This document shows positions 10,905 to 56,540 of a stretch of DNA of 64,000 bases, piece after piece. The position numbers and the translations under genes are program-made. The notes under the pieces were generated by a model that made no database searches, was not told where the DNA came from, and was given only the letters and a program-made list of their open reading frames with translations. The DNA is from an uncultured Acidobacteriota bacterium (lineage in GTDB: Bacteria; Acidobacteriota; UBA6911): positions 256,001 to 320,000 of the forward strand of contig CAWJKZ010000013.1 of the NCBI GenBank assembly GCA_963843575.1. Direction: 5' to 3'. How positions within the stretch are numbered: position 1 is the stretch's first letter; each line of letters starts with the position of its first letter.

Positions 10905-10971
10905 GATCCCATTCTAACCCGGCTTCCCGCAGCTTCGAAGAAGATGTGAAATAAAACAAGGCCCGATCTCA

Positions 10972-11211: not shown

Positions 11212-11368
11212 TCAGGCGGAGGCCGCGGCTGCAACCCTGCCCAGGAGCTCCCCTCCGGGTTCAGACGACTCCAAGGAGCTCGACGGATGCTCGGCCCGTG
11301 CCGGACTTCAAATGTTTCCGCTTTCGATTCTTGATCTGCGGGGACACTTCAATTAACTTTCCAGCCTC

Positions 11369-13308: not shown

Positions 13309-13530
13309 CAGGTTTTACCTCGAAAGCATAAATTATAGCACAAAAAACCTCCGGAGCTAGGCGCCTGGGCGCATCCCGTCACACCCCGCTACCGGAAGTC
13401 CCGGCGCCTCGGCGCCACCACCAAAGCGGCATCGAGCCTTGGGCCTCATGCGCATCGTGAACCGGGGAAAACAAAAGCCGGCCACGGAAGGACCCGGAAA
13501 AACACGGAATCCAGCACGCGGCGTCGCTCA

Positions 13531-13771
13531 GGGCTCGCGCAAAAGTCATTTCACATTTTGCTGACGGCTCCCGAGCCGACAGATCCTACGGCAGGCAACG
13601 ATAGGAGATTGCTATTAACTGAGCCGTCAACCCTCCGGGGCGCGGCGGTGGGCGGGCAACTGCGGCGTTGCCGCTTCCCGACGATGTTCACCACATCGCC
13701 TGCGTCGCGGCGCCTTGCATCAGTCCGCCCGGCGCTCGCGCCTAAATGTGAACTTATTCTTGCGCGAACCC
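13531..13771 (-). mobile_element. MITE copy C (inverted, diverged copy of B)
   Basis: Reverse complement aligns with copy B along its length; TCA on the left, TTCA on the right. Confidence 0.8.
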
Positions 13772-13808
13772 TTCAGATGCTTGCCGGGGGGTACAGCGGG
13801 GAACCCGT

Positions 13809-15045: not shown

Positions 15046-15588
15046 TCAGACAAAGTTCATGCGGTACCAGAGCAGCCCCAGGATGGTTTTGGCGTCGGCG
15101 ATGTCCCCTTTCCGGATGCCCTCGAGGCACTCATCGAGCGTGTAGGGTTGCACCGTAATGTGCTCTCCCTCCTCGAGCTTCTGCGACTCAGCCTTGAGCC
15201 CGCGCGCCAGATACAGGTGGATCACCTCGTTGCTGATCCCCGGCGTCGAGTAGAACGACAGCTGGTACGTGATCTCGGAAGCGCGGTGGCCGGTCTCCTC
15301 CTCTATCTCCCGGGTAATCGTTTCCAGCGGGGTCAGGCCGGAGTCGAGCTTGCCGGCGGGCAGTTCGAGGATGAATTTGCCCAGCGGGTACCGGAATTGG
15401 CGGATCAGCAGGATACGTCCGTCGTCGAGTACCGGCACGGCGACAACTCCGCCCGGGTGAAGCACCACCTCGCGGATCGCCGTGCCCCCGGAAGGCAGCC
15501 GGATCGTGTCGACCTGAAGTGTGACGATCACACCGCGGTAGTACTCGTCATGCCGTAAAACCACAGTCTCGGGATTTTCAGAGGTCAT
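15046..15588 (-). CDS. NUDIX hydrolase, ADP-ribose pyrophosphatase (NudF)-like
   Basis: ELPAGKLD...REIEEETG Nudix box, RQFRYP, STPG, DAKT. Confidence 0.9.
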   Translation of the reverse strand: MTSENPETVVLRHDEYYRGVIVTLQVDTIRLPSGGTAIREVVLHPGGVVAVPVLDDGRILLIRQFRYPLGKFILELPAGKLDSGLTPLETITREIEEETGHRASEITYQLSFYSTPGISNEVIHLYLARGLKAESQKLEEGEHITVQPYTLDECLEGIRKGDIADAKTILGLLWYRMNFV

Positions 15589-15836: not shown

Positions 15837-17216
15837 ATGCAATACCATCTCGAGAATGAGCTGTTTCAGATTGACGTCGGCCGGGAATGGATCGTGTATG
15901 CGCCCTTGAAGCGGATTGCCTTCCGGGCCAATGGACTGCTCGTCAACCTGCTCTGCGACATCCAGGACGGAGTCGCCATAGATCCAGAGAGTTGCGGCGA
16001 AGCTCTCGCGAAGCTGCAGGAATGCGGAGTCCTCGCCGCCACCCACGAAGAGTCCCCGTCCCGCGGCGTGCGTGATCTGTCCGAAGAGCCCTTCCAGCCC
16101 GTCAACCTCACGCTCTTCCTGACATCGGACTGCAACCTCGCGTGCCGGTACTGCTACGGTGACGGCGGAGCCCGGCGCGCCAGCATGCCCATGTCGGTCG
16201 GTTTGGCGGCAATCGACGTTCTCTTTCGGAACGCACGGCGGAAGGGAGCCCACAAGGTCCATCTCGGATTCCACGGGGGCGGAGAACCGACCCTGAGGAT
16301 GGACACCCTGAAGCGGCTGGTCCGGCATGCGCGCAGGCTGGCCCACGAGCACAAGATCGACCTTGCTCTCGGACTCACGTCAAACGGGGTGATGCCCGAA
16401 GAGGCAGCCAGGTGGATCGCGTGCAATATTCATCAACTCAACATCTCGCTCGACGGCCCCGGGGCCATGCAGGATTTCCAGCGGCCCATGAGAAACGGCG
16501 CCGGATCTTCCGAGAGAGTCGCCAGGACCCTTCGGATCCTGGAAGAGCAGGGAACCCCCTATCACCTCCGCGGCACCGTCACCCGTATCTCGGAGGAACG
16601 GATTCCGGAGATCGTGAGTTACCTCACCGGCAAGTTCTCTCCTGCCAGCATCCAGCTGGAACCCATGTTCAGCTCGAGTCGAGCGGAGAAGGCCGGCATT
16701 GGGAAGCCCGATGAGGGCAGCTTTGTGCGGGGGTTTCTTGCGGCGGGGGAGATTGCCAGGAAGAAAGGGATCCGCCTGCATTTTTCCGGCGACAGGTTCC
16801 CCGCGATTTCGAGCCGTTTCTGCAGCATCGGCTGGGAGACCTTTGCCGTTACCCCCGAGGGTCGCGCCACGGCGTGCTTTGAAGTGTTGCGGGAAGAGGA
16901 CTCCCGGTCGAAGATTTTTTTCTTCGGGACGTTCAGCGACGGGCACGGTTTTTCCTTTCAGCCGGACCGGATCCGACACCTGCGCGTCCTGTCCGAGACC
17001 GAGTTGCCCCACTGCCGCGACTGCTTTGCCAAGTTCCACTGCGCGGGCGATTGCCGGGCGAAAGGGCTCTACCCGGACAGCAGGGCGACGGAGGTACAGG
17101 GCACGAGTCGGTGTCGCATAATCCAGGCCCTGACGAAGGCCAGGTTGGTTGAACTCCTGGAGTCGGTGCCGCTGGTCCGACTGGAAAACGCCGGGGAGGC
17201 ACCGAACGAATGCTGA
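15837..17216 (+). CDS. Radical SAM/SPASM-domain protein 1
   Basis: CNLACRYC, FHGGGEPTL, SLDGP; SPASM-like C...GRATAC...CRDC.....CAGDC...C. Confidence 0.92.
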   Translation: MQYHLENELFQIDVGREWIVYAPLKRIAFRANGLLVNLLCDIQDGVAIDPESCGEALAKLQECGVLAATHEESPSRGVRDLSEEPFQPVNLTLFLTSDCNLACRYCYGDGGARRASMPMSVGLAAIDVLFRNARRKGAHKVHLGFHGGGEPTLRMDTLKRLVRHARRLAHEHKIDLALGLTSNGVMPEEAARWIACNIHQLNISLDGPGAMQDFQRPMRNGAGSSERVARTLRILEEQGTPYHLRGTVTRISEERIPEIVSYLTGKFSPASIQLEPMFSSSRAEKAGIGKPDEGSFVRGFLAAGEIARKKGIRLHFSGDRFPAISSRFCSIGWETFAVTPEGRATACFEVLREEDSRSKIFFFGTFSDGHGFSFQPDRIRHLRVLSETELPHCRDCFAKFHCAGDCRAKGLYPDSRATEVQGTSRCRIIQALTKARLVELLESVPLVRLENAGEAPNEC

Positions 17217-17288
17217 AGATTCCTCCGCCGGCACGAGTTGGCGGAGATAAGCCAACCCGCTCCTGGACTCGCACTTTCCCGGGTTAGA

Positions 17289-18698
17289 ATGATGGTTTCG
17301 GATGCACGCTACATCTACGCTATCCCCATCTCGGGGAAGCACCTCGTCTATGCCCCGCTAAAAAAGCTGGCAGCCCTGGTAAATGGGAAGGCCGTTGCCT
17401 CGCTTGGCGGGTGGCTCCGGGATGACGCGGGGGGAAAACAGCCGATTGCCGGGCTGGAGCCTCTGTGCGAAGGGGTGGAGGAGCCTGACGGGTACATGCC
17501 GGAAATGAAGACCGGCCCGATTTCCCCCGCTTTTCTGGGTATCATCCCGTCGCGCTCGTGCAACCTCGCCTGTTCGTACTGCAGTTTCGGGGCTGCGCAC
17601 GCGCCGCGCGAGCAGATGAACCCCCTCGTGGCGGCTTCGGCCGTCGAGTGGATGGCGGAGAATTGTGCGCAGCGCGGGGAAACGAGGCTCGAGGTTCACT
17701 TTTTTGGCGGTGAACCTCTGGTCGCCGCCGACGTCGTCGAGGTTGTCGTCCACAAGGCCCGGGCGATGGCCGAGAAACTCGGGCTGGTCCCGCACCTGGA
17801 GCTCAGTACCAACGGCCTATTCGATCAGGACTGGGCCGGTTTCGTGGGTGACTACTTCGACACGGTCGTGCTTTCGCTGGACGGGCCCGCCGACATCCAC
17901 GACCGGCAAAGGCCGAGGCCGGGAGGCGGGGGTAGCTTCGAGGCGGTCGTCGCCACCGCACGTTGTCTGGCCCAGTCGCAGGCCGAACTCTGTCTGCGCG
18001 GATGCATCAGTTCGGGCAGCGTCGCCCGCATGGAGGAGATCGCGGGCTGGTTTTGCGAAGCCTTCGATCCCAAGGCCGTCAATTTCGAGACGCTGCAACC
18101 CACCGTCCGCTCCGACAGCGCGGGCCTGCGACCGCCCGATCCCTATGAATTTGCCCGGCACTTCATCCGAGCGGAGAAGGTCGCACGGGAGGCGGGAGTC
18201 ACAACGGTCCATGCCTCGGCTGAAATCGGCAAGAACAGATTCAGCTTCTGCCCGGTCGGGACCGACACCCTGGTCGTCTCCCCGGACGGTCGCGTCAGCA
18301 GCTGTTACCTCCCCGAGCGTGAGTGGAAGGCCCGGGGGCTGGATTTCCATGTCGGCAGCGTCGGGCGGCGACGCACGTTCGGCATCGACCTCGAACACAT
18401 CGAAGCGCTGCGCGATTGCGTGACGACCGAGCCGGATCGGTGCGCGCGATGTTTCTGCCGCTGGACCTGCTCCGGGGGGTGCCGCGTCAACCACTCCTAT
18501 CCGGGCTGTTCACGCCATTACGACGACTTCTGCATTCAGACGCGGATCATCACGGCGTGCAGGCTCCTGCTGTCGCTTGGCCTGCCGGACCTCGTCGAGC
18601 CGCTGATCAGCCGTCGCGAAGACATGCAGTTGCTGGCGTTAAAAACCTCGGATCGGCTTGACGCTTGGGAGAACCAGGATGCCGGGCGTGACCTCTGA
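17289..18698 (+). CDS. Radical SAM/SPASM-domain protein 2 (paralog of 1; start approximate)
   Basis: CNLACSYC, FFGGEPL, SLDGP; CPVG...GRVSSC...CARC.....CSGGC...C; N-terminal VYAPLK motif shared with protein 1. Confidence 0.92.
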   Translation: MMVSDARYIYAIPISGKHLVYAPLKKLAALVNGKAVASLGGWLRDDAGGKQPIAGLEPLCEGVEEPDGYMPEMKTGPISPAFLGIIPSRSCNLACSYCSFGAAHAPREQMNPLVAASAVEWMAENCAQRGETRLEVHFFGGEPLVAADVVEVVVHKARAMAEKLGLVPHLELSTNGLFDQDWAGFVGDYFDTVVLSLDGPADIHDRQRPRPGGGGSFEAVVATARCLAQSQAELCLRGCISSGSVARMEEIAGWFCEAFDPKAVNFETLQPTVRSDSAGLRPPDPYEFARHFIRAEKVAREAGVTTVHASAEIGKNRFSFCPVGTDTLVVSPDGRVSSCYLPEREWKARGLDFHVGSVGRRRTFGIDLEHIEALRDCVTTEPDRCARCFCRWTCSGGCRVNHSYPGCSRHYDDFCIQTRIITACRLLLSLGLPDLVEPLISRREDMQLLALKTSDRLDAWENQDAGRDL

Positions 18699-18978
18699 GC
18701 ACGGGGCGAGCTTTCGTGTCGCTGCGCACGTGAGCTGGGCACCGGAGAGCTGTGGGATCCGTGTCGTCGACAGGCAGACGAACGGGGTCCGCGTTCTCGA
18801 TTACCCACGGGCTGCCGTCTGGGACTGCGTCGCCCGCGGGAGGACCTATGTCCAGGCACTACGATTGCTGTGCGCGCTGTATCCGGTCGACGAGTCCGGC
18901 GCGGAGCGCATGGTCCTGCAATGCCTCTCGGAGTGGATGAAGTGGGGCCTCGTGACACGCGTGAACGAGCATGACTAA
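18679..18978 (+). CDS. Stand-alone PqqD-like RiPP recognition element (RRE)
   Basis: 99 aa with beta strands followed by AAVWD...LLCALY.V......V...L......GLV; overlaps both neighbouring genes. Confidence 0.65.
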   Translation: MPGVTSEHGASFRVAAHVSWAPESCGIRVVDRQTNGVRVLDYPRAAVWDCVARGRTYVQALRLLCALYPVDESGAERMVLQCLSEWMKWGLVTRVNEHD

Positions 18979-20932
18979 CCTCTCCATCGTCGCGGACTGC
19001 AATCTGAATTGCCCGTACTGCTTTTCACGGTCCGCCTACCGCGGGGAGGCTGCCGTGCGCAGTATGCCGGCGCGCCGTTTCGATCTCATGCTGGAAATCC
19101 TGGTTCGGTCGGGACAGGACCGGGTGCGTCTGTTGGGCGGGGAGCCCACGCTTCATGCCGAGTTCCCCTCGCTCGCGGGCCAGGTGGTTGCCCGAGGCCT
19201 CGGTTTGCTCGTCTTTTCAAACGGATCGATCCCCGAATCCTCGCTGCGGGTTCTCGAGGAAATCCCCGGCCTGAGCGTCATGGTCAACATCGCGGCGACC
19301 ATGGGGCAGAACGGCGAGTTGCCGCCGCGCCAGCGCGAGGTACTCGGACGACTGCGCGCCCGTGTGTCCCTGGCTTTCACGATCTGCTCTCCCAACCCGC
19401 CGCTCGATCGCCTGCTGAACCTGGTCGAGGAATACGGGCTGGACAAGAGCGTCTGCCTGGGCCTGGCTCACGCCTGTCTCGCCGGTGGCAACAGGTTCCT
19501 CGATCCCATGCATTATCCGCGCGTGGGCGAGCAGATCGTCCTGTTCGCCCTTCGTGCGCGCCAGGAACGGGTGGCGCTCAATTTCGACTGCGGCTTCGTG
19601 CCCTGCATGTTTCCCTCTGAGAGCCGTGAAGTACTGGGCAAAGCTTTGGAGGAGATCGGAACCCATTGCGGCCCGATCCCCGATATCCTGCCCGATGGGG
19701 ACGCCGTCGCGTGCTATCCGCTTGCCCCTCTCGGCCGGCTGCCCGTCTCGCGCGAAACCACCACCGGAGACCTGAGGAAGGCCTTCGCACCTGTTCTGGA
19801 ACCTTACCGGCAGGTGGGCATATACCGGAAGTGCTCCGCGTGTGACTGGTCGAGAGAGGGAAAGTGCGCGGGAGGCTGTCTGGCCGACGCGATGAGACGT
19901 CTGCGCCAAGGCGGGACGGTATTCCAGGTCCCGGCACCTGCCAGAGACCGGATCACCACCTCTCGCGGCGGCGACCCGACGGCTCCGGACGCCACGGATG
20001 GTTCCGAAACCACAGCACGGGCAAAGTGGGTGGTCCCCTACATCGATCAGCCCCTCTCGTTCTGGGATGAGATCGCTCAGGATTTCCGGGACGACATCAA
20101 GGAAGTCTATTTCCCCCTTCCGGGCGACCTGCTGGGTTCGGGGCGGCCTCCGCAGCCCGCACGGCATCTGGAGGATTTCCTCGCTCGCTCGCTCCTGGGC
20201 CGCTCGGTGCTGATAAACCCCATAACCCTGCCCGGGCCGGTGGGGCAGCTCGCCCCGGCCATAATCGAACGACTTCGCGAACTCACCGGGCGATTTCAGG
20301 TGTCCAGTGTTACCGTCTCGAATCCCGAACTGGCCGAGCGGATCCGCGAGGCTCTCCCCGGCCTCTCGATCACCGCATCCGTCCTGATGGACATCGCTCA
20401 TCCAAGACAGGTCCTGATGCTGCACGGCGTTCTGGATGGACTGGTGCCATCGGGCCGGATCATGCGAAATCTCCCGGCCCTGCGCGAACTCCGCGCGGCT
20501 TTTCGAGGCCGCATCCGGCTGATCGTCAACGAGTCGTGCATTCCGGATTGTCCGTATCGCACACAGCATTTTTACGAGATGGCGCGCTGCCGCGTCGTCC
20601 CTCCGGGGACGCCCTGCGCCGCGTTGCTGGAGAGGACTCCCTGGCTTCGACTCACCGGCACCTGGGTCCTGCCGCAGCACCTGCACTTCTACCGGGGGGT
20701 CTACGACGAGTTGAAACTGGCAGGAAGGGTCACGCTGCGCAACCCCGGCGACTACGTGCGTGTCCTGCGCGCGTACACCCGTGGAGATCCCCTCTCCCCG
20801 CACGAAATCGGCGGAGGTCCGGCATCGGTGCTGGACAAGATGCTTGTCAGCGAGGCTCTTTTTGCCCAGACCCTGAGTTGTTCGAAACAGTGCCACGACT
20901 GTCGGATTTGCCGTGACTACTATGATCGGTAA
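18971..20932 (+). CDS. Radical SAM/SPASM domain fused to a C-terminal U32-family (UbiU/UbiV/TrhP/RlhA-like) domain
   Basis: N-terminal CNLNCPYC, LLGGEPTLH and CSAC......CAGGC. From ~20024: EVYFP...GSGR, ITASV, LIVNESCIPDCPYR..H, LKLAGR, CxxxCxxCxxC. Confidence 0.82.
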   Translation: MTNLSIVADCNLNCPYCFSRSAYRGEAAVRSMPARRFDLMLEILVRSGQDRVRLLGGEPTLHAEFPSLAGQVVARGLGLLVFSNGSIPESSLRVLEEIPGLSVMVNIAATMGQNGELPPRQREVLGRLRARVSLAFTICSPNPPLDRLLNLVEEYGLDKSVCLGLAHACLAGGNRFLDPMHYPRVGEQIVLFALRARQERVALNFDCGFVPCMFPSESREVLGKALEEIGTHCGPIPDILPDGDAVACYPLAPLGRLPVSRETTTGDLRKAFAPVLEPYRQVGIYRKCSACDWSREGKCAGGCLADAMRRLRQGGTVFQVPAPARDRITTSRGGDPTAPDATDGSETTARAKWVVPYIDQPLSFWDEIAQDFRDDIKEVYFPLPGDLLGSGRPPQPARHLEDFLARSLLGRSVLINPITLPGPVGQLAPAIIERLRELTGRFQVSSVTVSNPELAERIREALPGLSITASVLMDIAHPRQVLMLHGVLDGLVPSGRIMRNLPALRELRAAFRGRIRLIVNESCIPDCPYRTQHFYEMARCRVVPPGTPCAALLERTPWLRLTGTWVLPQHLHFYRGVYDELKLAGRVTLRNPGDYVRVLRAYTRGDPLSPHEIGGGPASVLDKMLVSEALFAQTLSCSKQCHDCRICRDYYDR

Positions 20933-23684
20933 CCCCATGGAAGAGGCGGAGCGGATACACCCGACCCTGCCTATATTCCTGGTGAACGCGGGCGAACGCC
21001 CCGTCATATACACTCCAGGACACCTGGCCGTGATCGGTCACCGGGACGCACACATGCTCCGCCGGGCGTGGGGAAACGGCGAGCCCCCTCCGGACAACTC
21101 GGTTGCCTTCGCCGTTGTCCCGTGGATCGAGATGCGGTCTTGTGAAGCCTGGTCCGAATGGGAGCGGCTGCTGAACGAACCTTTCGCCCCGGAGTGCCTG
21201 ACCATTTATCCGGGGAATCAATGCAACCTTGCCTGCCCATATTGCTACGCGGGGGGCGCGGCCGGCCGGCAAGCGGGCCGCACGATCGCCCCGGCCGCGG
21301 TTGAGTCCGCGGCCCGGCTCGTCGCAAGGAACTGCGCCGACAAGCGCAAGGCATTTCAACTCGTTCTCCACGGCGGGGGCGAGCCGACGCTTCACTGGGA
21401 CCTGGTCGAGAGGATAGTCCTGATCACACGCCGCGTCGCGGACGAGATCGGTGCCGAGTGGCTGGGGTATATCGCGACCAATGGGGTGCTTTCGGAGACC
21501 AGGGCGATCTGGCTCGCGCGGAATTTCACGGTCGGGCTTTCGTGCGACGGTCCACCGGAAATTCAGGACCGGCAACGGCCTCTGGCGGACGGGTCCCCGT
21601 CATCCGGCGTCGTGGAACGCACGGCCCGTCTCGTCGTGGACACCGGTGGGCGCCTCGAGGTGCGCGCGACCATAACGCCGGCTGCGATTCCCCGTCAACG
21701 CGAGATAGTCGAATACCTGCACCACAAGTTGGGAACCCGGCACATGCATTTCGAGCCGCTGTACCGCGCGTGGACGGCTGGGAGCGACGGGGCGTTCTCG
21801 TTGGATGACGTCGAGCCGTTTGCAGAGCACTTCCGCGCCGCCCAGGACGCCGCCAAAAGCCTGGGGGCCGAGCTTTTCCTGTCGGGTGTGCGGGTGCACG
21901 AGATCCACGGCCCGTATTGCGATTTAATCCGGCAGGTGTTGCGGCTCACCCCAGACGGCACCGCCACCGCCTGCTTTCTCGACACCGGCGGCGATGCCGG
22001 ACCGGAACGCGCGTGCAGGATCGGTGCGATGGACGAATCCACCGGCGAGTTCCTCCTGGACCGCGAGAGGATTGCACTGCACCGAATGGCTGTCGGGCGG
22101 ATCCCGCCGGGCTGCCACGGATGCCCGAATGTTTTCCACTGTGCCCGCGACTGCCCCGAGACCTGTTACGCCCGGGCGCAGGACGAACTCGGGTCTGCCG
22201 CTGGGGACGCGCCGGGCGGCCGCCGGGGTGTTCGTTGCCGGATAGCACAGCGCCTGTTCCTTTCGTGGATCCGGGATGCGGCCTTCGGCACCCGCGCATC
22301 GTCCACCGCCGAGTCGCGGGCGCGTTTCTCCACCCACGGGTGGACCACGTTGCTGTCCCAGTTGCAGCGCGCCGCTCCACGCATCGACGCGGACGCGATC
22401 GCTAGGCAATGGAGCGCATTGGGGCGGGGATATCGGGTCGGTGAACGCCGGCCGCCCATGCCGATATGGGCGAAGAGGGGTTTCGAGGACGGGGGGCCCG
22501 AGGCATGGCGCAAATTGGACGCGCAAAACAGCAACGCAACGGAAACCGCCCCTCTCTCGATATATGTACACATTCCCTTCTGCGACCGAAGGTGCGGCTA
22601 TTGCGATTGCCGCTCCGTCCTCATGCCCCGGCGCAATAGAATCGAAGAATCGTCCTACTGTCGTGTCCTGCTGGAGGAAATCGAGGCCTGGTCGAAAAAC
22701 GAACATCTATCCAGGCGGCCAGTGACGACCGTCCACTTCGGCGGCGGCACGCCGAACTATCTCGGCTTCGATCTCTTTGACCGGATCGTCGACGAGCTGC
22801 GGAGGCGTTTCAACACCGTTCGCGAAACGGAGTGGGCGCTCGAAACCACCGGATCGCTCCTGACCCGTGCGCACCTGGCACAGCTGAAGGATGCGGGTTT
22901 CACCCGGCTCCACGTGGGGGTGCAGACGCTGGAAGACGGACTGCGCCGTGCCATTGGGAGACGACAAAGCGGAGCGGGCATACTCGAGGGAATCGCCCTG
23001 GCCATCGAAATGGGTTTCGTGTCGTCGGTCGACGTCATCTACGGTCTCCCGGGCCAGGAACTACCTGGGTTCCTTGACTCCCTGGTGCGGCTCGCCGAGA
23101 GCGGCGCCCAGGGTTTCTCGCTCTACCGGCTGAACGTCTCGGCGCGGAACCTCCGGTTCATTCAGAAACGGATGACGCGGGGACGGGATCCTCTCCACGA
23201 TTACGCCCTTCTGCAGGCCGGTGAACAGCTGTTGCGCGCATCCGGGTACCGGAAGAACCATTTCACGCACTATGCCCTGGCGGCGGACCGGAACTTGTAT
23301 TTCACGCACCCGCAACGCGGGGAAGACCTCCTGGCGCTGGGCGCGAGCGCGGACGGGTTTTTCGGCCACTATCACTACAGGCACATGGATTACAGCGGCT
23401 ACGTCGGCCCCGGGGCCGGGGTTTTTTGCAGTTTGCAGGGGGGATTGCCGGAGACCGAGCGGGAGAAGAGGATTCGACCCGTCACGGCCTCACTGATGGG
23501 AGCCGGCATCAAGGCCGACTTGCTGCGGCGGTTCGGGCTGCAGGACCTGCTCGAGGAATGGAAGGAGTCCGCCCTGCTCGAGCCGGGTTCCGATCCCGGC
23601 ACCTTTGCCCTCACAGCCAACGGCTCGTGGTTTATCGATCGGATGATCGATGACGCGGAGTCTGTCCCGGTTTCCGGGGGCTGA
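20922..23684 (+). CDS. Double radical SAM protein: SPASM-type domain fused to a HemN-like domain
   Basis: Domain 1 has CNLACPYC, HGGGEPTL and CHGC.....CARDC. Domain 2 has IYVHIPFCDRRCGYC, HFGGGTP, GVQT and DVIYGLPGQ. Confidence 0.88.
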   Translation: MIGNPMEEAERIHPTLPIFLVNAGERPVIYTPGHLAVIGHRDAHMLRRAWGNGEPPPDNSVAFAVVPWIEMRSCEAWSEWERLLNEPFAPECLTIYPGNQCNLACPYCYAGGAAGRQAGRTIAPAAVESAARLVARNCADKRKAFQLVLHGGGEPTLHWDLVERIVLITRRVADEIGAEWLGYIATNGVLSETRAIWLARNFTVGLSCDGPPEIQDRQRPLADGSPSSGVVERTARLVVDTGGRLEVRATITPAAIPRQREIVEYLHHKLGTRHMHFEPLYRAWTAGSDGAFSLDDVEPFAEHFRAAQDAAKSLGAELFLSGVRVHEIHGPYCDLIRQVLRLTPDGTATACFLDTGGDAGPERACRIGAMDESTGEFLLDRERIALHRMAVGRIPPGCHGCPNVFHCARDCPETCYARAQDELGSAAGDAPGGRRGVRCRIAQRLFLSWIRDAAFGTRASSTAESRARFSTHGWTTLLSQLQRAAPRIDADAIARQWSALGRGYRVGERRPPMPIWAKRGFEDGGPEAWRKLDAQNSNATETAPLSIYVHIPFCDRRCGYCDCRSVLMPRRNRIEESSYCRVLLEEIEAWSKNEHLSRRPVTTVHFGGGTPNYLGFDLFDRIVDELRRRFNTVRETEWALETTGSLLTRAHLAQLKDAGFTRLHVGVQTLEDGLRRAIGRRQSGAGILEGIALAIEMGFVSSVDVIYGLPGQELPGFLDSLVRLAESGAQGFSLYRLNVSARNLRFIQKRMTRGRDPLHDYALLQAGEQLLRASGYRKNHFTHYALAADRNLYFTHPQRGEDLLALGASADGFFGHYHYRHMDYSGYVGPGAGVFCSLQGGLPETEREKRIRPVTASLMGAGIKADLLRRFGLQDLLEEWKESALLEPGSDPGTFALTANGSWFIDRMIDDAESVPVSGG

Positions 23685-23717
23685 GGTGCCCGGGGACGCT
23701 CGCGCGTCGTTCGCCCG

Positions 23718-24878
23718 CTATATCGTTTCGCAGCGCACCCATTTCCCCGGATCCCGGATGGAAAGCGGCGCTGTCCTCGCCAGCCTCACTATCGTGTGCC
23801 CCGGGTGCTTGCGGCGCACTTCCGCGAGTGTATCCGGGTGGAATAAGAAGTAATCCCGCGCATCCCTGAAGGCGCAGCAACTTTCCAGCAATCCCTCGTC
23901 CAGAAATTTCTCGTGCTCGGATTGCACGACGGGCGCGAGGCTGCGGCGCCGGCCTCGCAGCTGCCTCAGCTTGCTCTGCAGCGAGCAGTCGTTTACCGAA
24001 ATGCCCAGTTCGTCGTCCTGGACCCGCCGCATCACCTCAAAGGTCAGAGCACGGCTGTCTCGGGAGATGCTGCCACGGTGGCCGTCCGGGGTGACAAAGT
24101 CCCTCCGGGGCCCGGGCAGCGCGGCCGATCTGCTGCCTGCCTCGAACATCAGTTCGTGGAGGTTCAGGAACCTCACCCCCGCCGCGCTCCAGGGCGCCAG
24201 GCAGCCGAGGAGCTTTTCCGCGTGCTCGGGTATCGCCGGGATCTCCACGGTCACATTGGGAATGAGCGAGCCCGCGGTCGCCAGGTTTCGCATGACGCCC
24301 GGGTGGTCGTACCCGGTGGCGGCCATGTTGAAGCGGATCTCGTCGATGCCGAGTTCTCCCAGATACCGGAGCTTCCCTGCATCGGCGCGGAGTCCGTTCG
24401 TGTAGACCCAGAAATATTTCTCGGGATAGCGGGTCTTGAACCAGGCGACCCAGTCGAACAGCCCCTCCGGGTCCGCCAACGGCTCGCCGCCGGAAAAGCT
24501 GATCCCGGTAATACGGGTGCGGGCGTGATTTCCCGCGATCTGTTCGGGGGTCTCGCCGAATGCCGAACCGCGGTAGTCCTTCCGGAGATCCCGCGGGCTG
24601 CAACAGAAGGGACACTCGAGGTTGCAGCTTGTGCTCGTGAATATGCAGTCCCAGGTGCCTTCTTTGCAGGCCTCGCACCCGGGCGACAGCTCGCCCACGT
24701 GAAGGGTCTCCCCCTGCGCCGCGATCCGAACTCCAGGGATGTCCCTGGCGGCTCCGGCCACCTGTTCGTCCCAGGTCTGCCGAAGATCGTCGAAGCCGGT
24801 TTTATCGTGATTCCGAGAATGCAGCTGCCGCTGCACGGTCTCCAGAAACGGGGGCGAAGTTCTATCCTGGATCGACAT
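23718..24878 (-). CDS. Radical SAM protein (non-SPASM) with additional N-terminal CxxC
   Basis: LSPGCEAC..G...C.F....CNLECPFCC, FSGGEPL, YTNG, DEIRFN, VEIPAIP, NLHEL. Confidence 0.88.
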   Translation of the reverse strand: MSIQDRTSPPFLETVQRQLHSRNHDKTGFDDLRQTWDEQVAGAARDIPGVRIAAQGETLHVGELSPGCEACKEGTWDCIFTSTSCNLECPFCCSPRDLRKDYRGSAFGETPEQIAGNHARTRITGISFSGGEPLADPEGLFDWVAWFKTRYPEKYFWVYTNGLRADAGKLRYLGELGIDEIRFNMAATGYDHPGVMRNLATAGSLIPNVTVEIPAIPEHAEKLLGCLAPWSAAGVRFLNLHELMFEAGSRSAALPGPRRDFVTPDGHRGSISRDSRALTFEVMRRVQDDELGISVNDCSLQSKLRQLRGRRRSLAPVVQSEHEKFLDEGLLESCCAFRDARDYFLFHPDTLAEVRRKHPGHTIVRLARTAPLSIRDPGKWVRCETI

Positions 24879-24973
24879 AGGACGCGTGGTTCACCGGTAT
24901 GGGTCCCAGGAGTGCCGATGGGCCGGGCGCCCGCCACCTGCCGCAGCCCTGGTCTCCGGACGGCTTGCAGTCC

Positions 24974-25408
24974 TCAGGCTGGGTGATTGGACAGAGCGGC
25001 CCGCGCGCCGGTTTTCGCGAGGCTGTAGCAGGGGGTCATGCGGGCGATCTTCAGGTATCCCTGGCTTACCAGTGCCTCGACAAACTCGGTTACGTCGGCG
25101 GCGACAACCTCGTGTCCGAGGCTGAAATGCCGGCAGAGGATTTCCGCCACCCCATGGCAGTTCCTCCTGCCGTCGATCGCGTGCCAGATCGCGGCACCCG
25201 CTTCGTTCAGCGAGATGGACTCGCCCGAGCAGCTGGTGAGCACGGTCTCCCCTGCGACAACGGTGATGCGGACCTTGCCCGCGTGCACCGGCACCGGCGA
25301 TTTCTCCACCGGCAGAGGTCTTTCCCCGGCCGTCGCAGTTCGCGGTGCGGACAAAGCGGATCCGGCGGCGGACATCATTGCTGAAACGATGAAATGTCTG
25401 CGATTCAT
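24974..25408 (-). CDS. PqqD-family RRE protein with putative Tat signal peptide
   Basis: LNEAGAAIWHAIDG.....VAEILCRHF......DVTEFVEALVSQGYL PqqD pattern; N-terminus MNRRHFIV plus hydrophobic stretch; GAGG SD. Confidence 0.82.
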   Translation of the reverse strand: MNRRHFIVSAMMSAAGSALSAPRTATAGERPLPVEKSPVPVHAGKVRITVVAGETVLTSCSGESISLNEAGAAIWHAIDGRRNCHGVAEILCRHFSLGHEVVAADVTEFVEALVSQGYLKIARMTPCYSLAKTGARAALSNHPA

Positions 25409-25450
25409 GATCGGTGCCTCGCGAGCAAGTCCGGATCCCAGGATTCGCTC

Positions 25451-25777
25451 CTAGTTGGGATACCAGTAATGAGAATCCGACCCGCAACCGACGTACGAAA
25501 CGCACGAGCATTCCGTGTCGCAGGTGCAGACCTGGTTGCAAGTGCAGACCTGGTTGCACGTGCAGGTGGTTTCGCCCACCGCGTGACAGGCGCAGACGGA
25601 GTCACAGCAGCACTGGCCCGAGGCCTCCTGTGCCGGCGTCGGGGCGGCCTGGCGTTTGAACCCCGGTTTCTGATAACTTTCCTGCCCCCCGAGCTTAACC
25701 AGTCGGTAAAGTTGCGGCTCTTCCCCGCCCGGTTCCGGGGTGCGCTTCAGTCGGAACCGATTGTTTTTTTCTTCCAT
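25451..25777 (-). CDS. Putative RiPP precursor, 108 aa, Cys-rich CxC-repeat core with HYWYPN C-terminus
   Basis: GAAGG SD; hydrophilic Cys-free 55-aa leader; 14 Cys in the last 53 aa; directly upstream of an RRE and a radical SAM gene. Confidence 0.82.
   Translation of the reverse strand: MEEKNNRFRLKRTPEPGGEEPQLYRLVKLGGQESYQKPGFKRQAAPTPAQEASGQCCCDSVCACHAVGETTCTCNQVCTCNQVCTCDTECSCVSYVGCGSDSHYWYPN
25524..25565. repeat. 18-bp tandem repeat encoding CTCNQV units of the precursor
   Basis: GTGCAGACCTGGTTGCAA GTGCAGACCTGGTTGCAC GTGCAG. Confidence 0.9.
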
Positions 25778-25822
25778 GGAATGACCTTCGTATGAATTCC
25801 GTCCGCCGATTGGCGACACGAC

Positions 25823-28519
25823 TCAGTTCAGCGTTCTTACCAGGCGTAACCCCACATAGCCGTAACGGTCGTCGGACCGCTGGTAGCCGTAAGAGTAGCG
25901 ATGGGCCAGGCGCATCAGGTTGGCATCGCCAACATAGGGATTCGCCGAGCCCCCACGCGCCATCCTGTTACTGCTCGCGCCGGATGTCCCGAGATAATCG
26001 GTCACGGTCCCGGATGGATAGTAACCATCCCGATCCCAGCACCACTCCTCGGCGTTGCCGTGGACATCCTTGAGGTTCCAGGCGTTGGCCAGCTTCAGGC
26101 CGACCGGGTGGAGCGAGCCGCCGGAATTAGCGCAGAACCAGGCCACCGACTCCAGGGCCGGCAGCGCGCCTGCGGTGCAGCTGGTCTTCGTGGTGCTGTT
26201 GAATTTGGGCTCCTCGATGTGGAAGGGGCCCGAGCTGCCGGCACGGGCGAAGTACTCCCACTCACCCTCCGAGGGTAACCTGTAGCCGTTGGCGCTGAAG
26301 TTGCAGTAGATCGGATCGGACAGATAATTCGTCGCGTCGATCGGGGTGCGAAAATCGGCGTCCTTGTAGTAGCAACGCGTCAGACCGTTGCGCGCCGAGA
26401 GCAGGTTGGCGAAGAGGATCGCCTCGAACCACTTCACGCCGTCCACGGGCTCGGACATCGAGTGCGAGGTATCCAAAGGGTCGGCAGGGAGCGAGGGTTG
26501 TGCCGACCGCAAGTCCGCCCACATTTGCTGCGTTACCTCGGTCTCCATCACCGCGAAGCTCTTCGACAGGATGTGGGTGAACTGCGCCTCGTAGGAACTG
26601 TGGCCTATCTCCCCGCTGGGCGATCCCTGGGTGAATCCCGCCGACCCCGTGGCCGGGACAAACCGCATGTTGCCCACGATCCCATCAACGCTGTGCAGCC
26701 CTCCTCCCAGCCCTTCGGCGACCTTGACGGCCGTTATCGTCTGGCCCGACCTCGGGCAGTTGGTGGAACTGATCGTCAGGGTGCCCGTCATATGGGTCGA
26801 GTCTGTGAATGAGCCGCTGAAACTCAGGCCGCCCGAGCGCAGGTCGATCCGACTGGCCGATGTCGGGAGGCTGCCGATGGAGATCTTGCAGTTGTTGCAG
26901 TCGGTGGCGGAGACCTTGTAGGTGTGGACGAAATCGCGGATCGAACCGGAACTGTCCACGTTGAACGAAACGTCCGTCCCCTTCCAGCTTCCCCGGGTGG
27001 TCTGCGGGGTGGCGTCCGTCGTCGTGTGTGGCGGCACCCCGGTGTATTGCAGGCCGGTCGCCGTCATTTCCATTCTCAAGACGGTCATGCAGATGTTGGC
27101 CCCCGCCTCGACGGCCAGCGAGCCGACAAAGCCGTCCGGTATGCCGGAAAAAATCCCGCCCGCGCCGCAGAAGAACAGGGCGCTCTGTCCCGTGTATGGA
27201 ATCGTCTGCTGCTGGACCTGATTGCCCGCGGAGTCGTAGAGGGTGAACTTAACCTGAAACCCCGTGCCGGCGTAGGAGACGAAAGCCAGCCCCGTGTTCA
27301 CCATCGCCGATTTCTCGACTGGCAGCGTGAATGACCGGCCTTCGGGACTGTGGGCGATTCCGATCGAGTCGATCAGTTTGTTGCTGAACACATAGTTGTA
27401 GAAGAACGCCGTGGCTATCGAGCCCATCGGACTGCTGTCGCTCTGGATCGCGAGATAGCCGGAACGCACCTGGCTGTCGCCGACAAGGACGTATCTAGCC
27501 GTCGCCTTCGGTCCCAACGAAATGTCGAACGATGACGAACCGGTCATGTTGATGCTGTTCAACGTCCAGCCGCTGGACCAGGACTGGTCGTTCGCCCGGC
27601 GGAGCGTGGCCCGCCCCGCCCATATCGAGCTCGATTCATTCGAAACGATCAGGACCGTCTGGTACTCGCCCCCGAGGGCCAGCTGGGCGTAGGTAAATCG
27701 AGGGTCCGCCGACTGCGCGGCGGGGTGCGGCGGGAAACTCGTGTATTGCACGCCGTCGGGCGTGTTCTCCATGCGCAGGACCGTCATGCACAAGTTCTGG
27801 TCGGACTCGACGACCAGCGAACCGACGAACCCGTCGGCTATGCCCGGGAAGATGCCGCCCCCCGGGCCGGTGAAGAAGCGTGCGCTTTGCCCGTCGTAGT
27901 TGAGCGTCACCTGCTGGACCTGGCGGCCGACCCCGTCGAAGAGCGTGAATTTTATCGGGAAGCCTGTCTTTACGGAGGATACGTAAGCCAGCCCGGTGTT
28001 CACGCTGGCCGATTTCTCGGCCGCGAACGTGAATGCGCGGCCTTCATAGCTCGGGGGCACCCCGATCGAGTCGATCAGCTGATTCCCGACGATGTAATTG
28101 TAGAAAAATGCCGTGGCGATGTTGTTAATCGACGTGCTGCTCTGGATCGTCAAGTATCCGGAACGGGTGGTGTCGTCGCCGGCGAGGACGAACTTGCGGG
28201 TCGCCTTTGGGCCGAGCGAAATATCGAACGACGTTGAGCCCGTCTTCGCCGCGCCGTTCAGGGTCCATGCGGATGTCCACGACTGATCGTTTCCCTTTCG
28301 GAGGTTGGCCGTGCCGGACCAGGCCGTGCTCGACTCGTTGGAAACGACAAGGACGGTCTGGTACGACCCTCCCAGCGCCAGTTGGGCGTAGGTCAGACCG
28401 GCAGAAGTCTGGGCCTGATTGGTGTCGATCGCAAGACAAGCCAGTAGAATGGCGGACAGAATCCCCAGCGCTCTATATGCCACGGTACTCCTTTCCAGCC
28501 AGCGGACCGCAGCCATCAC
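25823..28519 (-). CDS. Secreted protein with two tandem ~225-aa repeats and a C-terminal FGE-sulfatase (SUMF1-like) domain
   Basis: Signal-like N-terminus; repeats TYAQLALGG...QYT..PPH at ~27724-28396 and ~27027-27697; ETEVT, YRLPSEGEWEY.ARAG, DVHGNAEEWCWD, RGGS, GLRLVR. Confidence 0.88.
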   Translation of the reverse strand: MMAAVRWLERSTVAYRALGILSAILLACLAIDTNQAQTSAGLTYAQLALGGSYQTVLVVSNESSTAWSGTANLRKGNDQSWTSAWTLNGAAKTGSTSFDISLGPKATRKFVLAGDDTTRSGYLTIQSSTSINNIATAFFYNYIVGNQLIDSIGVPPSYEGRAFTFAAEKSASVNTGLAYVSSVKTGFPIKFTLFDGVGRQVQQVTLNYDGQSARFFTGPGGGIFPGIADGFVGSLVVESDQNLCMTVLRMENTPDGVQYTSFPPHPAAQSADPRFTYAQLALGGEYQTVLIVSNESSSIWAGRATLRRANDQSWSSGWTLNSINMTGSSSFDISLGPKATARYVLVGDSQVRSGYLAIQSDSSPMGSIATAFFYNYVFSNKLIDSIGIAHSPEGRSFTLPVEKSAMVNTGLAFVSYAGTGFQVKFTLYDSAGNQVQQQTIPYTGQSALFFCGAGGIFSGIPDGFVGSLAVEAGANICMTVLRMEMTATGLQYTGVPPHTTTDATPQTTRGSWKGTDVSFNVDSSGSIRDFVHTYKVSATDCNNCKISIGSLPTSASRIDLRSGGLSFSGSFTDSTHMTGTLTISSTNCPRSGQTITAVKVAEGLGGGLHSVDGIVGNMRFVPATGSAGFTQGSPSGEIGHSSYEAQFTHILSKSFAVMETEVTQQMWADLRSAQPSLPADPLDTSHSMSEPVDGVKWFEAILFANLLSARNGLTRCYYKDADFRTPIDATNYLSDPIYCNFSANGYRLPSEGEWEYFARAGSSGPFHIEEPKFNSTTKTSCTAGALPALESVAWFCANSGGSLHPVGLKLANAWNLKDVHGNAEEWCWDRDGYYPSGTVTDYLGTSGASSNRMARGGSANPYVGDANLMRLAHRYSYGYQRSDDRYGYVGLRLVRTLN

Positions 28520-28840
28520 ATTGTCGGAATTGGTGGCTGGATCCTATATCCTTATCGGATGGGAGTCAATGATCCACACCCAAAGCCGTGAGAGATTTCG
28601 CGGAGCCCGCAATCCAAGGGGGGCGGACGGTCGGCGCGCCCCGGCTTCCTCAGTCGTTGCCTCTCCTGTCTCGAGCGTCGCTCTGCAAAGTGCGAGTGCA
28701 TCGCCGCGTTTTTTCCGGCTAAACGCAAAAATGACCCCTAAAATGAAAAATGAGGCCGGTTTTCGAGCTTGAAATACTGGTAAGCTGCTGTGCAGGGACG
28801 ATTTAACCAGGTCCGTCCCCGACATGGTACAATCTGGCCC

Positions 28841-31463
28841 GTGAATCGCAAACGCTTGTACCTCATCGACGGCATGTCGCACATCTATCGCGCGTACTAT
28901 GCCATACGCAACCTGCGCAGCTCCAAGGGTCTCCCGACCAACGCGATCTACGGTTTCACCTCGATGCTGCGCAAGCTCATGCAGGACGAGAAGCCCGATT
29001 ACATCGGCGTTGCCCTCGACCTGGAAGGGCCCAACCGTCCGCCACGAGAAGTACAGCGCCTACAAGGCCCAGCGCAAGCCCATGCCCGACGAGCTGACCC
29101 AGCAATTGCCCTACATCCGCAGGGTCTGCGACGCATTCTGCGTGCCGATGATCTCATTCCCGGGTTACGAGGCGGACGACGTGATCGGGACGCTCTCCCG
29201 CAAGGCGGCCGAACAGGGCCTGACCTCGATTGTGGTCACGAGCGACAAGGACATGCTGCAGCTCGTCGGCGACAGCATCCTGGTCCTCGACCCCATGAAG
29301 GACAACCTCATCCTGGACGCTGCCAAGGTGCAGGAGAAAATGGGGGTCAGACCGGAGCAGGTCGCGGACCTCCTCGGCCTGTGGGGCGACACGGTCGACA
29401 ATATCCCGGGCGCTCCCGGCATCGGCGAAAAGGGCGCGAAGGAACTGATCCAGACGTTCGGGACGCTGGAAAACTGTCTTCAGAATTGGGACAAGGTCAA
29501 GAGGAAGACCTACCAGGAGAGCCTGCGCCAGAATGTCGAACTCATCCGGACCAGCAGGGAACTGGCCACAATCCGGCAGGACTTGCCGATCGATCTCGAT
29601 CTGGCCTCGCTCAACGTCTGCGAGCCCGACCGGAAACTCGCATTCGAGCTGTTCTCCGAACTCGAATTCAAGAACCTGACGCGCGAGTTCCTCCAGGAGG
29701 AGGTGCGGGAACCGCTGAAGGCCGAACGACTCGGCGGCGCCGCCGCCGAGGCCTTCCTGCAAGGGCTGAGATGCCAGGACCGGGTCTATTTCGCGCTGGC
29801 CTATCGCCAGGCCGCCCTCTCCCGCAAGGCCGCGACGACCCTGTGCGTCCAGGGCGACACCGGCCCCGCGGCCATCCTCGATCTGCTGGACGACTCCGTC
29901 GCCCGAGCGTGGAACGGTCTCATGCAGCAGGATCTGTTGTTTGTCTGCTGGGATGCCAAGCTCTGCCGCCTGTCGCAGGAGGGGCGCCGCGTCTCTATGA
30001 ACGGCAGGGTCCAGGACGTGATGCTCCTGGCGTTTCTAACATCTCCCCACATCGGCGATTACTCCCTCAGGCGATGGGCGCTCGACCAGTTGCACGTCGA
30101 CCTGGCGGCGGAGACAGGGCAACGCGACCTCCTGGCCGGCCTTGACACCGAGGCGATCGGCGCGAGCCTCTGCCGCGAACTCGAGTCGATCCGCCGCCTT
30201 CATGAAATCCTGGAACCCCAGATCTGCAGCCTCGAGCTGCAGCCGGTGCTGGACAACATCGAGCGACCGCTCATCCCCGTCCTGGCAGATATGGAGCGGG
30301 CCGGCATAAAGGTCAATCCCGCGATGCTCCAGCAGCTTTCGACCCAGATGGAGAAACAGCTCGCGTGCCTCACCGAGTCGATACACGCCGCCGCGGGAAC
30401 CGAGTTCAACATCAATTCTCCCAAGCAGCTCGGGGAGGTGCTCTTCGAGAGGCTCAACCTTCCGACCTCCCGGAAGACCCGCAAGACCGGCGGCTACAGC
30501 ACCGACCAGGCGGTCCTCGAGGAACTGGCCCAGTCCTACGACCTGCCACGCCTCATCCTGGAGTTCCGCCAGATCTCCAAACTCAAGTCGACCTACGTGG
30601 ATTGCCTCCCCGCCCTCATCAACCCGGCGACGCGTCGCGTGCACACGTCCTTCAACCAGACCGGCGCGGCGACGGGAAGGCTGTCCAGTTCGGACCCCAA
30701 CCTGCAGAACATCCCGGTCAGAACGGATCTCGGGCGTCTTATCCGGGCAGCGTTTGTCCCGGAAGACGGCAATCTCCTCATCTCCGCCGACTACTCCCAG
30801 GTCGAGCTGCGGGTCCTGGCGCACCTGTCGGAGGATCCGGTGCTGATCGAGGCATTCCGGAACGACGAGGATATCCACGACCGGACGGCGCGTGAGGTTT
30901 TTACCGAGCAGGAGCGTGCCAACCGATCCGAGTGCCGGCGAATGGCCAAGGTGATCAACTTCGGGATCGTCTACGGGCTGTCGGCGTTCGGGCTGGCGCA
31001 GAAACTGGGCATATCGCGCGAGGCCGCGCAGACCTTTATCGACGCGTATTTCGAGCGGTACAAGGGCGTGCGGGCCTGGCTGGACCGGACCCTCGAAGAA
31101 GTGCGCGCGTCCGGCAGGGCGCGCACGATGTTCGGGCGCATCCGGCCCATCCCGGATATCCACAGCCGGGACTACACCACACGCCAGTTCGCCGAACGCA
31201 CCGCGGTCAATACTCCCATCCAGGGAACGGCCGCCGACATCATCAAAATAGCCATGATTCGAGTCCACCGCTCATTGCGGGATACGGGGACCTCCGCTAG
31301 AATTCTGCTTCAAGTGCACGACGAGCTGGTGCTCGAATCGCCGGCCCGCGAGGTCGATGGGATTCAGGACCTCGTGCGGCGCGAAATGGAAAACGCCGCG
31401 CAATTGCTTGTTCCCCTGAGAGTTGACATCAACGTCGCCGACAACTGGAAGGACATGAAATAA
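28841..31463 (+). CDS. polA: DNA polymerase I (apparent frameshift at ~29030)
   Basis: LIDGMSHIYRAYYA, EADDVIGT, DNIPG, TGRLSSSDPNLQNIP, ADYSQVELR, INFGIVYG, QVHDELV. Confidence 0.97.
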
Positions 31464-56524: not shown

Positions 56525-56540
56525 AAACGGAAGCCCCCAT

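Follow-up and report, generated by a model that had tools for sequence, protein, structure and literature searches.

The stretch of DNA analysed here, hereafter the window, comprises 64,000 nt of an uncultured Acidobacteriota bacterium (GenBank assembly GCA_963843575.1, contig CAWJKZ010000013.1, positions 256,001 to 320,000), and it holds, at window positions 15837-28519, a block of nine genes (A to I, Table 1) that we examined as a putative system for the maturation of a Cys-rich peptide by radical S-adenosylmethionine (SAM) enzymes. An earlier note on this DNA had described two operons that converge at 23684/23718, with the last four genes of the plus-strand operon overlapping, and six radical SAM domains around the peptide. 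Checking of all open reading frames (ORFs) by coordinates bore out this layout, with overlaps between B and C, C and D, and D and E, and with the minus-strand genes transcribed in the order I, H, G, F. Six CX3CX2C motifs in all were found by direct reading (A99, B108, D10, E104, E557 and F85), the Pfam Radical_SAM threshold is exceeded in A, B, D, E (in two stretches) and F, and a CX2CX5CX3C motif of the SPASM type is present at A393, B402 and, in the first half of E, at E401. As had also been described, the block lies between a NUDIX gene and polA, and none of the genes within it encodes a peptidase or an ABC exporter. Its G+C content (0.63-0.65) is the same as that of the surroundings, and a compositional island was rejected for that reason.

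Table 1. Genes of the block and its two flanks, in window positions; functions are predicted.
Gene	Position	Strand	Predicted product
NUDIX gene (flank)	15046-15588	-	
A	15837-17216	+	radical SAM/SPASM maturase, 459 aa
B	17238-18698	+	radical SAM/SPASM maturase, 486 aa, TTG start uncertain
C	18658-18978	+	small PqqD-like protein, no signal, 106 aa
D	18971-20932	+	radical SAM domain Dn (residues 1-~320) fused to U32-fold Fe-S domain Dc (~340-653)
E	20913-23684	+	radical SAM/SPASM domain En (residues 1-~480) fused to HemN-like radical SAM domain Ec (~510-923)
F	23718-24878	-	small radical SAM protein, 386 aa
G	24974-25408	-	RR-motif N-terminus and hydrophobic stretch, then PqqD/RRE domain, 144 aa
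H	25451-25777	-	precursor peptide, 108 aa from ATG 25777; ORF open from 25819
I	25823-28519	-	secreted accessory protein, 898 aa
polA (flank)	28899-31463	+	

The peptide at the centre of the block, H, consists of a leader (residues 1-55) containing EEPQLYRLVK and a core (residues 56-108) that contains 14 Cys, with six CxC and four [DN]xxC, and ends in HYWYPN; a GAAGG stands 7 nt upstream of its ATG. A word-based search of 5.8 billion proteins returned one homolog of near-equal length (62% identity) and a longer one. Among the 86,994 open frames of the window's genome, H is the sole one that ends in YW[YHRF]P[NTCSD]. Because this ending is unique in the genome and recurs beside the same enzymes elsewhere, H is more than a chance ORF. 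A word search of sequencing runs with window positions 18600-28550 listed no RNA run and eight DNA runs, each holding 5-8% of the sampled words.

Relatives of the block were sought by scanning 185,579 species genomes with the alignment of D, which gave 135 genomes; 80 loci were fetched and are the basis of all counts per locus given here (L053, L055 and L056, which repeat substrates of individually fetched stretches, are counted once, within the 80). Endings of the form YW[YHRF]P[NTCSD] were found in 94 of the 17,271 open frames (at least 40 aa) of these loci, and 90 of the 94 contain two or more CxC within the final 120 residues; these 90 are spread over 62/80 loci, against the 46/80 obtained with the narrower ending motif tried first. 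The co-occurrence of the radical SAM enzymes with a CxC/YWxP peptide, which the earlier note had set in advance as its own check, was therefore found in most loci, and it was found again in 301 genomes of the phylum, where a profile of the tail (E<=1e-10) and one of Dc (E<=1e-116) hit the same five genomes, on the same contigs, at thresholds picked after the scores had been viewed and among related genomes that are not independent samples. Both these 301 genomes and the 40 relatives mentioned below include G034, as a genome without the system.

The genes or domains A, B, C, Dn, Dc, En and Ec recur in this order, with Dn and Dc, and likewise En and Ec, fused or separate according to locus. In the 39 loci of at least 20 kb, Dc being present in all of them by construction, B was found in 38, Dn in 37, A in 34, En in 32, Ec in 30 and F in 10, and the B orthologs share 37-54% identity. 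When E was searched for in 40 related genomes, the full fusion was returned from three (G021, G027 and G002) and partial sets from two more, and the best match in a genome of the same genus (1.4e-25) covers the HemN-like half only. At least 216 full-length relatives of D were obtained at E<=1e-5 from the 8000 candidates scored, all with generic names. The genomes given by the scan with D, nearly all titled as metagenome-assembled genomes (MAGs), are labelled as Acidobacteriota, Chloroflexota, Desulfobacterota, Bacteroidota, Planctomycetota, Actinomycetota, Armatimonadota, Verrucomicrobiota, KSB1 and others; most carry labels of anaerobes, and among the named relatives, MAGs of Bryobacterales and Solibacteraceae are the closest. 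The arrangement in genome G030 is close to that of the window, with a stand-alone H-like peptide between the closest ortholog of A (48% identity) and a G-like protein, next to a protein with a domain of the formylglycine-generating enzyme (FGE) fold. The same genome adds a B12-binding radical SAM protein (L016:7184-8857; Pfam B12-binding 56.9 bits, Radical_SAM 70.8 bits) and two D-like radical SAM genes without the U32 half, so that the enzyme set varies between loci.

Most substrates in the relatives are not small peptides but WD40 proteins of 400-570 aa or lipoprotein-like proteins of about 150 aa with the same tail. In the related loci that were read first, the CxC repeats and HYWYP[NT] form the C-terminus of WD40-repeat proteins of 430-540 aa, which have an N-terminal EPxIY followed by SRRxFF and a hydrophobic stretch; the WD40 repeats of the substrates are of a generic scaffold type. 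Stand-alone substrates of about 110-145 aa were found in the window and in four other loci. A profile of the tail matched 280 of 1.84 billion representative proteins at E<=0.001, and among the best 150 of these, some of them fragments, 138 end in the motif, 97 are shorter than 300 aa and 53 have 300-570 aa. The 490 CxC units counted in 90 tails have Thr or Ser as x in 67%, Asp, Asn or Val at +1 in 90% and Val or Ile at +3 in 64%, most commonly at a spacing of 6, and from these position statistics the repeat unit of the tail is C-[TS]-C-[DN]-x-V, with a recurring [DN]xxC. Each tail has 2 to 11 such hexads, then a Gly-rich spacer and the final [HT]YW[YHRF]P[NTCSD]-COOH. HYWYPN accounts for 33 of the 94 endings, followed by TYWYPN, HYWHPN, HYWYPT and HYWRPN, and in 43 aligned tails Y, W and P are invariant at the C-terminal end. 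Many of the short substrates consist of little beyond leader, signal, lipobox and tail, and since these forms lack other domains, the tail would be the functional part and the WD40 propeller optional. Tyr-rich variants of the ending were also seen: a peptide of G030 (L016:9418-9780) ends in ...SYYTYYQTYYQTYYVYYS, with no Trp-Pro motif, a WD40 protein of G040 (L014:14054-15661) has YTYTYTYYYTYYYTYWYPN, and tails from Bacteroidota frequently end in YYYTYWYPN.

The N-termini of the substrates are conserved as well. In 73/90 tail ORFs, P-x-[VILM]-[YF] stands at a fixed distance from an RR-x-F and a hydrophobic stretch, many of them with a lipobox-like Cys at the end of the stretch (consensus eE-PEVYAikr---gwkLsRR-FLaAaaA). 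A further [DN]R[LI] upstream of PxVY was discarded as a general second leader motif, as it is found in only 10/73 leaders. The twin-arginine profile PF10518 (cut-off 22.7), run on ten N-termini, gave 24.1 bits for the substrate of L025, and six others matched at the RR site with 11-21 bits, below the cut-off; TatC, of the twin-arginine translocation (Tat) system, is present in the window's genome. H itself has no RR with hydrophobic signal, and by eye the adjacent G carries one. Among the neighbour ORFs of the 80 loci no protease family and no immunity gene recurs, and no exporter family is found in more than 7/80, so that relatives resemble the window in this respect. A leader placed within a Tat signal and cut by signal peptidase would explain this lack of a dedicated protease and exporter.

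Two small proteins of the block are PqqD-like. C scores 20.8 bits with Pfam PqqD (PF05402), just below the cut-off of 23.4, and is a candidate cytoplasmic leader-binding element; tblastn places a counterpart between B and D in many loci, and clustering of neighbour ORFs gave a further cluster of PqqD-like ORFs of about 97 aa in 16 loci. G had been described as a Tat-signal protein with an RRE, the recognition element of RiPPs, peptides that are made on ribosomes and modified after translation. The PqqD assignment stands at 46.8 bits, over the same cut-off, and the signal is an RR with a hydrophobic stretch recognised by eye in the N-terminus MNRRHFIVSAMMSAAGSALSAP. From its RR motif onward G is homologous (hhalign probability 94.9%, E=4.7e-8) to a family of about 150 aa, here named J, which was found in 39/80 loci by ORF clustering and in about 43/80 when ORFs starting at the RR motif were compared with the cluster. 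J proteins start with an invariant RRxF and then a charged amphipathic helix, and G has the hydrophobic stretch after the RR. The model of the J C-terminal domain has an RRE fold, with TbiB1, PqqD and lasso B1 with leader peptides bound as top PDB matches (E ~1e-3, TM score 0.62-0.73), and 3/31 members of the family match PF05402 at E<=0.01. A J profile found nothing at E<=0.01 in the window's genome, which is 88% complete, so that this alone is no proof of absence. G-type proteins are at the top of the hydrophobicity ranking of RR-start ORFs, and one adjoins the substrate in 5/5 loci in which the substrate has no signal (the window, G030, L035, L043 and L089), the only loci where they were found. 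A complex prediction of G (residues 40-144, alignment of 5 rows) with H (residues 1-55, 6 rows), run with no controls, scored 0.15 against a mark of 0.32, which speaks neither for nor against binding.

An NCBIfam scan of the block proteins reached the curated cut-off of no model, and H and C matched none at all, in agreement with the earlier view that the locus corresponds to no characterised pathway. With Pfam Radical_SAM, A scores 60.5 and B 49.5 bits; a SPASM domain is reported for B only, at 19.5 bits and under the 21.5 threshold. The best NCBIfam match of A is the SCIFF maturase (TIGR03974, 123.6 bits, cut-off 425), followed by PapB (NF047865, 112.5 bits, cut-off 340), and the corresponding scores of B are 117.2 and 107.2 bits. 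En matches PapB over residues 95-288 (84.7 bits), and the QhpD model (TIGR03906, cut-off 453) gives 82.0 bits for A, 83.6 for B and 60.1 for En. Ec is closest to ChuW/HutW (TIGR04107, 164.2 bits, cut-off 400, E=4.3e-48), its residues 512-913 aligning with profile positions 7-412/419, and then to HemN (TIGR00538, 138.7 bits, cut-off 325, E=2.4e-40) and HemW (TIGR00539, 132.0 bits, cut-off 205). F has Radical_SAM (44.5 bits) and Fer4_12 (42.4 bits) domains in Pfam, its best NCBIfam model is NrdG (35.4 bits, cut-off 126), and its neighbours in the ESM Atlas are unnamed radical SAM clusters only. The GeoRSP models (TIGR04302, cut-off 100; TIGR04303, cut-off 400) were not reached either, the scores being 30.0 bits for G and 24.3 for D.

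For D, the profile of Dn matches CteB, SkfB and anSME. The second half had been taken for a U32 protein, which holds for its fold and not for its sequence: against Pfam U32 (PF01136), Dc scores 14.6 bits over 44 residues (threshold 22.4, E=0.021), and its predicted structure (pLDDT 90.7) has the U32 peptidase Mk0906 (5d88) as top Foldseek match in the PDB (E=3.6e-8, TM score normalised to the target 0.70, rmsd 3.7). Seven Cys of Dc are invariant across 22 sequences, and one homolog of D (P0038) has a precomputed PF01136 hit. U32 proteins are described as Fe-S proteins linked to a hydroxylation of aromatic rings that is independent of O2 and depends on prephenate (PMC10990095).

I has a signal-like N-terminus, a pair of repeats each of about 230 aa, a domain in the middle and one of the FGE fold, and within its gene an internal duplication (27026-27161 and 27725-27860) has 72% identity. 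The FGE-sulfatase domain is well matched in Pfam (95.7 bits, residues 629-895), as the earlier note had it. True FGE has a pair of catalytic Cys near the C-terminus, and in I, which has no Cys after residue 827 of 898 and none in the last 70, this pair would be lacking. The closest solved relative is a binding protein, the Treponema variable protein TvpA (2y3c, E=3.1e-25), which is presumably a retroelement target. A diversity-generating retroelement was considered and dropped, as a repeat scan of the whole window gave no template/variable pair for the 3' end of I, only the internal duplication. A weak resemblance (E=3e-7) links the middle domain to a small secreted ORF next to A in L035. Because matches to the FGE domain were found in only 1/80 loci, G030 and the window, I lies outside the conserved core, contrary to its earlier inclusion; it may be a secreted protein with a binding function that goes with the stand-alone form of the peptide. 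Large NHL-repeat beta-propeller proteins are found inside some clusters (L009:8876-11263 in G021, and L020:12005-14215), and the C-terminal part of the one in G021 weakly resembles the N-terminal repeats of I (E=0.012).

The gene content, the folds, the conservation of motifs, the co-occurrence of enzymes and tails and the split arrangement of the window are observed, and on these grounds we think it probable that the block represents, in this genome, a conserved and so far undescribed system that matures Cys-rich C-terminal tails, which would be cross-linked, decorated and exported. As far as homology indicates, the conserved set comprises three paralogous SPASM maturases, a radical SAM-U32 protein, a HemN-like radical SAM enzyme, an optional small radical SAM protein and two RRE-type proteins. 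The chemical steps, leader binding and export route are inferred, and may be pictured as follows. The PqqD-fold proteins C and G would bind the leader of H at EEPQLYRLVK, and the SPASM enzymes A, B, En and probably Dn would convert Cys to thioether cross-links. The likeliest link would join the Cys sulfur to the beta-carbon of the Asp or Asn three residues upstream, as the repeated [DN]xxC agrees with the beta-thioether chemistry of NxxcB and PapB and with the cross-linking of a protein by QhpD. Dc would hydroxylate, without O2, an aromatic residue of the terminal HYWYPN, in which the invariant Tyr-Trp is the obvious target. HemN-like enzymes are known to methylate sp2 carbons in other pathways, such as that of thiopeptides, and Ec would act as a C-methylase, with F contributing a further radical step. 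In most members of the family the leader would lie in the n-region of a twin-arginine signal that the substrate itself carries, and the product would be exported folded through Tat, signal peptidase removing the leader; in the form found in the window the signal would be on G, which would carry H out by co-export.

Several observations weigh against this reading. The reaction assigned to each enzyme rests on distant resemblance, as the scores above remain under every family cut-off, and the U32 assignment of Dc is a fold match to a predicted structure, with a sequence hit below the threshold. The profile PF10518 lists no hit in G, the N-terminus of which may be a signal for Sec or an anchor in the membrane, and the RRxF that is invariant in J without a hydrophobic stretch suggests that the RR may serve a purpose other than Tat export. 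No CxC tail ORF was found in 18/80 loci, seven of which are shorter than 7 kb and 11 of which have 12-22 kb; among these 18, L085 has a tail ending in HYWYQ, and L060 and L062 have the ending without CxC. The unpaired weak hits in the 301 genomes (one tail-like, in G068, at E=2.5e-4, and four Dc-like) add to the caution that the choice of thresholds imposes on that comparison. Moreover, in four ORFs next to these enzymes (L017:12036-12218, L060:16060-16236, L062:14857-15336 and L024:10467-10784) the ending HYW[YH]PN comes with a single CxC or with none; they include a peptide of about 50 aa that follows D directly, an ORF without Cys repeats and one in which a PqqD-like domain is fused to the ending, those of L060 and L062 having no CxC at all. 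The terminal motif may thus be a target of its own, and the tail may hold two separable targets. L060 and L062 have no A gene in their flanks, so that both loci with CxC-free tails lack A, as do three loci with 3-6 CxC, and F is present in 7/10 loci with CxCHxV tails (CACHAV in the window) against 11/52 without; as the loci are truncated and related, both associations are leads only.

The same observations bear on what the product might be. One alternative holds that the tail matures into a protein-derived cofactor or a redox or metal centre, HYWYPN becoming a quinone-like or cross-linked aromatic without O2 and the caged Cys hexads serving as scaffold or metal site. It may be likened to PQQ, to mycofactocin and to the cysteine tryptophylquinone of the gamma subunit of quinohemoprotein amine dehydrogenase, an enzyme in which an aromatic residue becomes the cofactor and the partner subunit, against which the gamma subunit lies, is a beta-propeller. 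The invariance of Y, W and P in the 43 aligned tails, the two ORFs at D loci with HYWYPN and no CxC, the WD40 propeller on many substrates and the anaerobe labels of most hosts all suit such a centre, as does a U32-fold domain of the kind tied to O2-independent aromatic hydroxylation. The resemblance of the SPASM enzymes to QhpD (1e-23) also points this way, since QhpD makes Cys-Asp/Glu thioethers in a protein (PMC8326336); A and B remain far from the QhpD cut-off, however, with 82-84 against 453 bits. A range of 2-11 hexads is more in keeping with a structural repeat than with a fixed cofactor pocket, the WD40 repeats belong to the generic scaffold type, and with a passenger domain that is variable or absent (97 of the best 150 tail proteins, some of them fragments, are under 300 aa) no conserved enzyme partner is evident, and we regard a cofactor as unlikely. 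A wider form of the preferred reading, which we put forward as tentative and rather doubtful, is a general O2-independent maturation of extracytoplasmic proteins and lipoproteins, spread over at least a dozen phylum-level groups and distinct from a natural-product pathway, in which the leader would be built into the Tat signal, J and G would be proofreading or escort chaperones, and the products would be thioether cages together with a hydroxylated, methylated, quinone-like aromatic at HYWYPN.

The earlier note had proposed a RiPP, and a diffusible antimicrobial or signalling product of the ranthipeptide or sactipeptide type, in which H would be cross-linked, freed of its leader and released, would indeed account for a short Cys-rich precursor beside SPASM maturases and PqqD-like partners, for the peptide substrates of about 110-145 aa in the window and four loci, and for the patchy occurrence in the 40 relatives (three with the full E fusion, two partial). 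A peptide is indeed the predicted substrate in the window, but the term is too narrow for the family, most members of which are large WD40 or lipoprotein-like proteins and would remain bound to the cell. Neither a protease nor an immunity gene nor a dedicated exporter recurs in the 80 loci, and the G+C content of the block does not set it apart, so that a released RiPP seems quite improbable to us. It is more improbable by far that two unrelated operons merely abut here, the plus-strand enzymes acting on another substrate and I-H-G-F forming a small system of their own. The two operons are convergent and so not co-transcribed, and I is present in few related loci; yet elsewhere the same parts stand in one string beside a tail ORF (L017, L020, L056 and L035), A, on the plus strand here, adjoins the peptide in G030, L035, L043 and L089, and H is the sole tail-bearing frame of its genome.

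The maturation of Cys-rich tails that we favour shares features with several known systems. It resembles ranthipeptides (SCIFF/CteB, PapB-freyrasin and NxxcB-NxxcA) in the action of SPASM radical SAM enzymes on Cys-rich precursors with repeated acceptor motifs. The combination of CX3CX2C and SPASM Cys motifs that defines ranthipeptide maturases is found in A (99/393), B (108/402) and En (104/401), and these families supply the best NCBIfam hits of all three, yet with 84-124 bits against cut-offs of 340-425. Unlike in ranthipeptides, three SPASM paralogs stand here with three more radical SAM domains, a U32 domain and two PqqD-fold proteins, and the substrates are mostly exported proteins of 150-570 aa in which the leader is of the Tat type and the C-terminus is a fixed HYWYPN. 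As for the linkages, beta-thioethers are reported between Cys23 and Asn20 of NxxcA and between Cys and Asp in freyrasin, which has six, and QhpD is presented as a SPASM enzyme that forms several Cys thioethers in a protein bound for the periplasm, all in PMC8326336. QhpD differs in its model score and in having an unrelated tail motif and leader.

With the U32 proteins UbiU/UbiV, TrhP and RlhA, Dc shares a predicted TIM-barrel fold and a conserved Cys cluster, and it differs from them in its sub-threshold match to PF01136, in being fused or adjacent to a radical SAM domain within a peptide-maturation cluster, and in a substrate that would be a protein side chain; to our knowledge, no U32 protein acts on one. 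From end to end, Ec can be aligned with radical SAM enzymes of the HemN-like class C (ChuW/HutW), under their cut-offs, and unlike these is fused to a SPASM maturase. Tat export is known to involve proofreading chaperones of the TorD/DmsD type and the hitchhiking of signal-less subunits with a signal-bearing partner. The predicted likeness of our system to these lies in a modification finished in the cytoplasm, in a small protein that binds the signal or leader and in a signal on the partner G rather than on the cargo H; the binding module, in contrast, would have the PqqD/RRE fold and not that of TorD.

Outside the block, polA seems to be frameshifted near its start (window 28790-29100), through either an assembly error or a real frameshift: the beginning of the 5'-3' exonuclease domain (LYLIDGMSHIYRAYYA...) is encoded by an ORF from 28790, and the main ORF, which runs from 28899, uses a different frame and matches Pfam 5_3_exonuc_N from profile position 59 only. 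At least three copies of a repeat of about 120-250 nt stand between genes (window 7405-7524, 10971-11215 and 13527-13772), the direct pair being 94% identical and the inverted pairs 87-94% complementary. Window positions 56532-56902 hold tandem units of about 105 nt, each with a short palindrome (CGCATCGA...TCGATGCG).

Radical SAM/SPASM maturation with RRE partners and a Cys-rich precursor is a kind of system already known. What is new is the combination of six radical SAM domains, the fusions of radical SAM with U32 and of SPASM with HemN-like domains, the tail and leader motifs, the protein-sized substrates of Tat type and the RRE family with an RR motif. No description of such a system was found in the open-licence text of PubMed Central and bioRxiv, a scope outside which lie subscription journals and supplements (e.g. 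those of the radical SAM compendium PMC10288494). If the reading holds, this would be a radical SAM maturation system with six such domains, unusually many for one cluster, including two fusion types absent from the literature searched. Anaerobic hydroxylation of the U32 type, so far linked to quinones and RNA, would reach protein side chains as well, and a RiPP leader and a Tat signal would be one and the same element, which would account for the exit of heavily cross-linked products from a cell that has no dedicated protease or transporter for them. The family can be recognised by its terminal motif, its leader motif and the fusion in D, and it is widespread in uncultured bacteria labelled as anaerobic or as from soil, sediment and gut.

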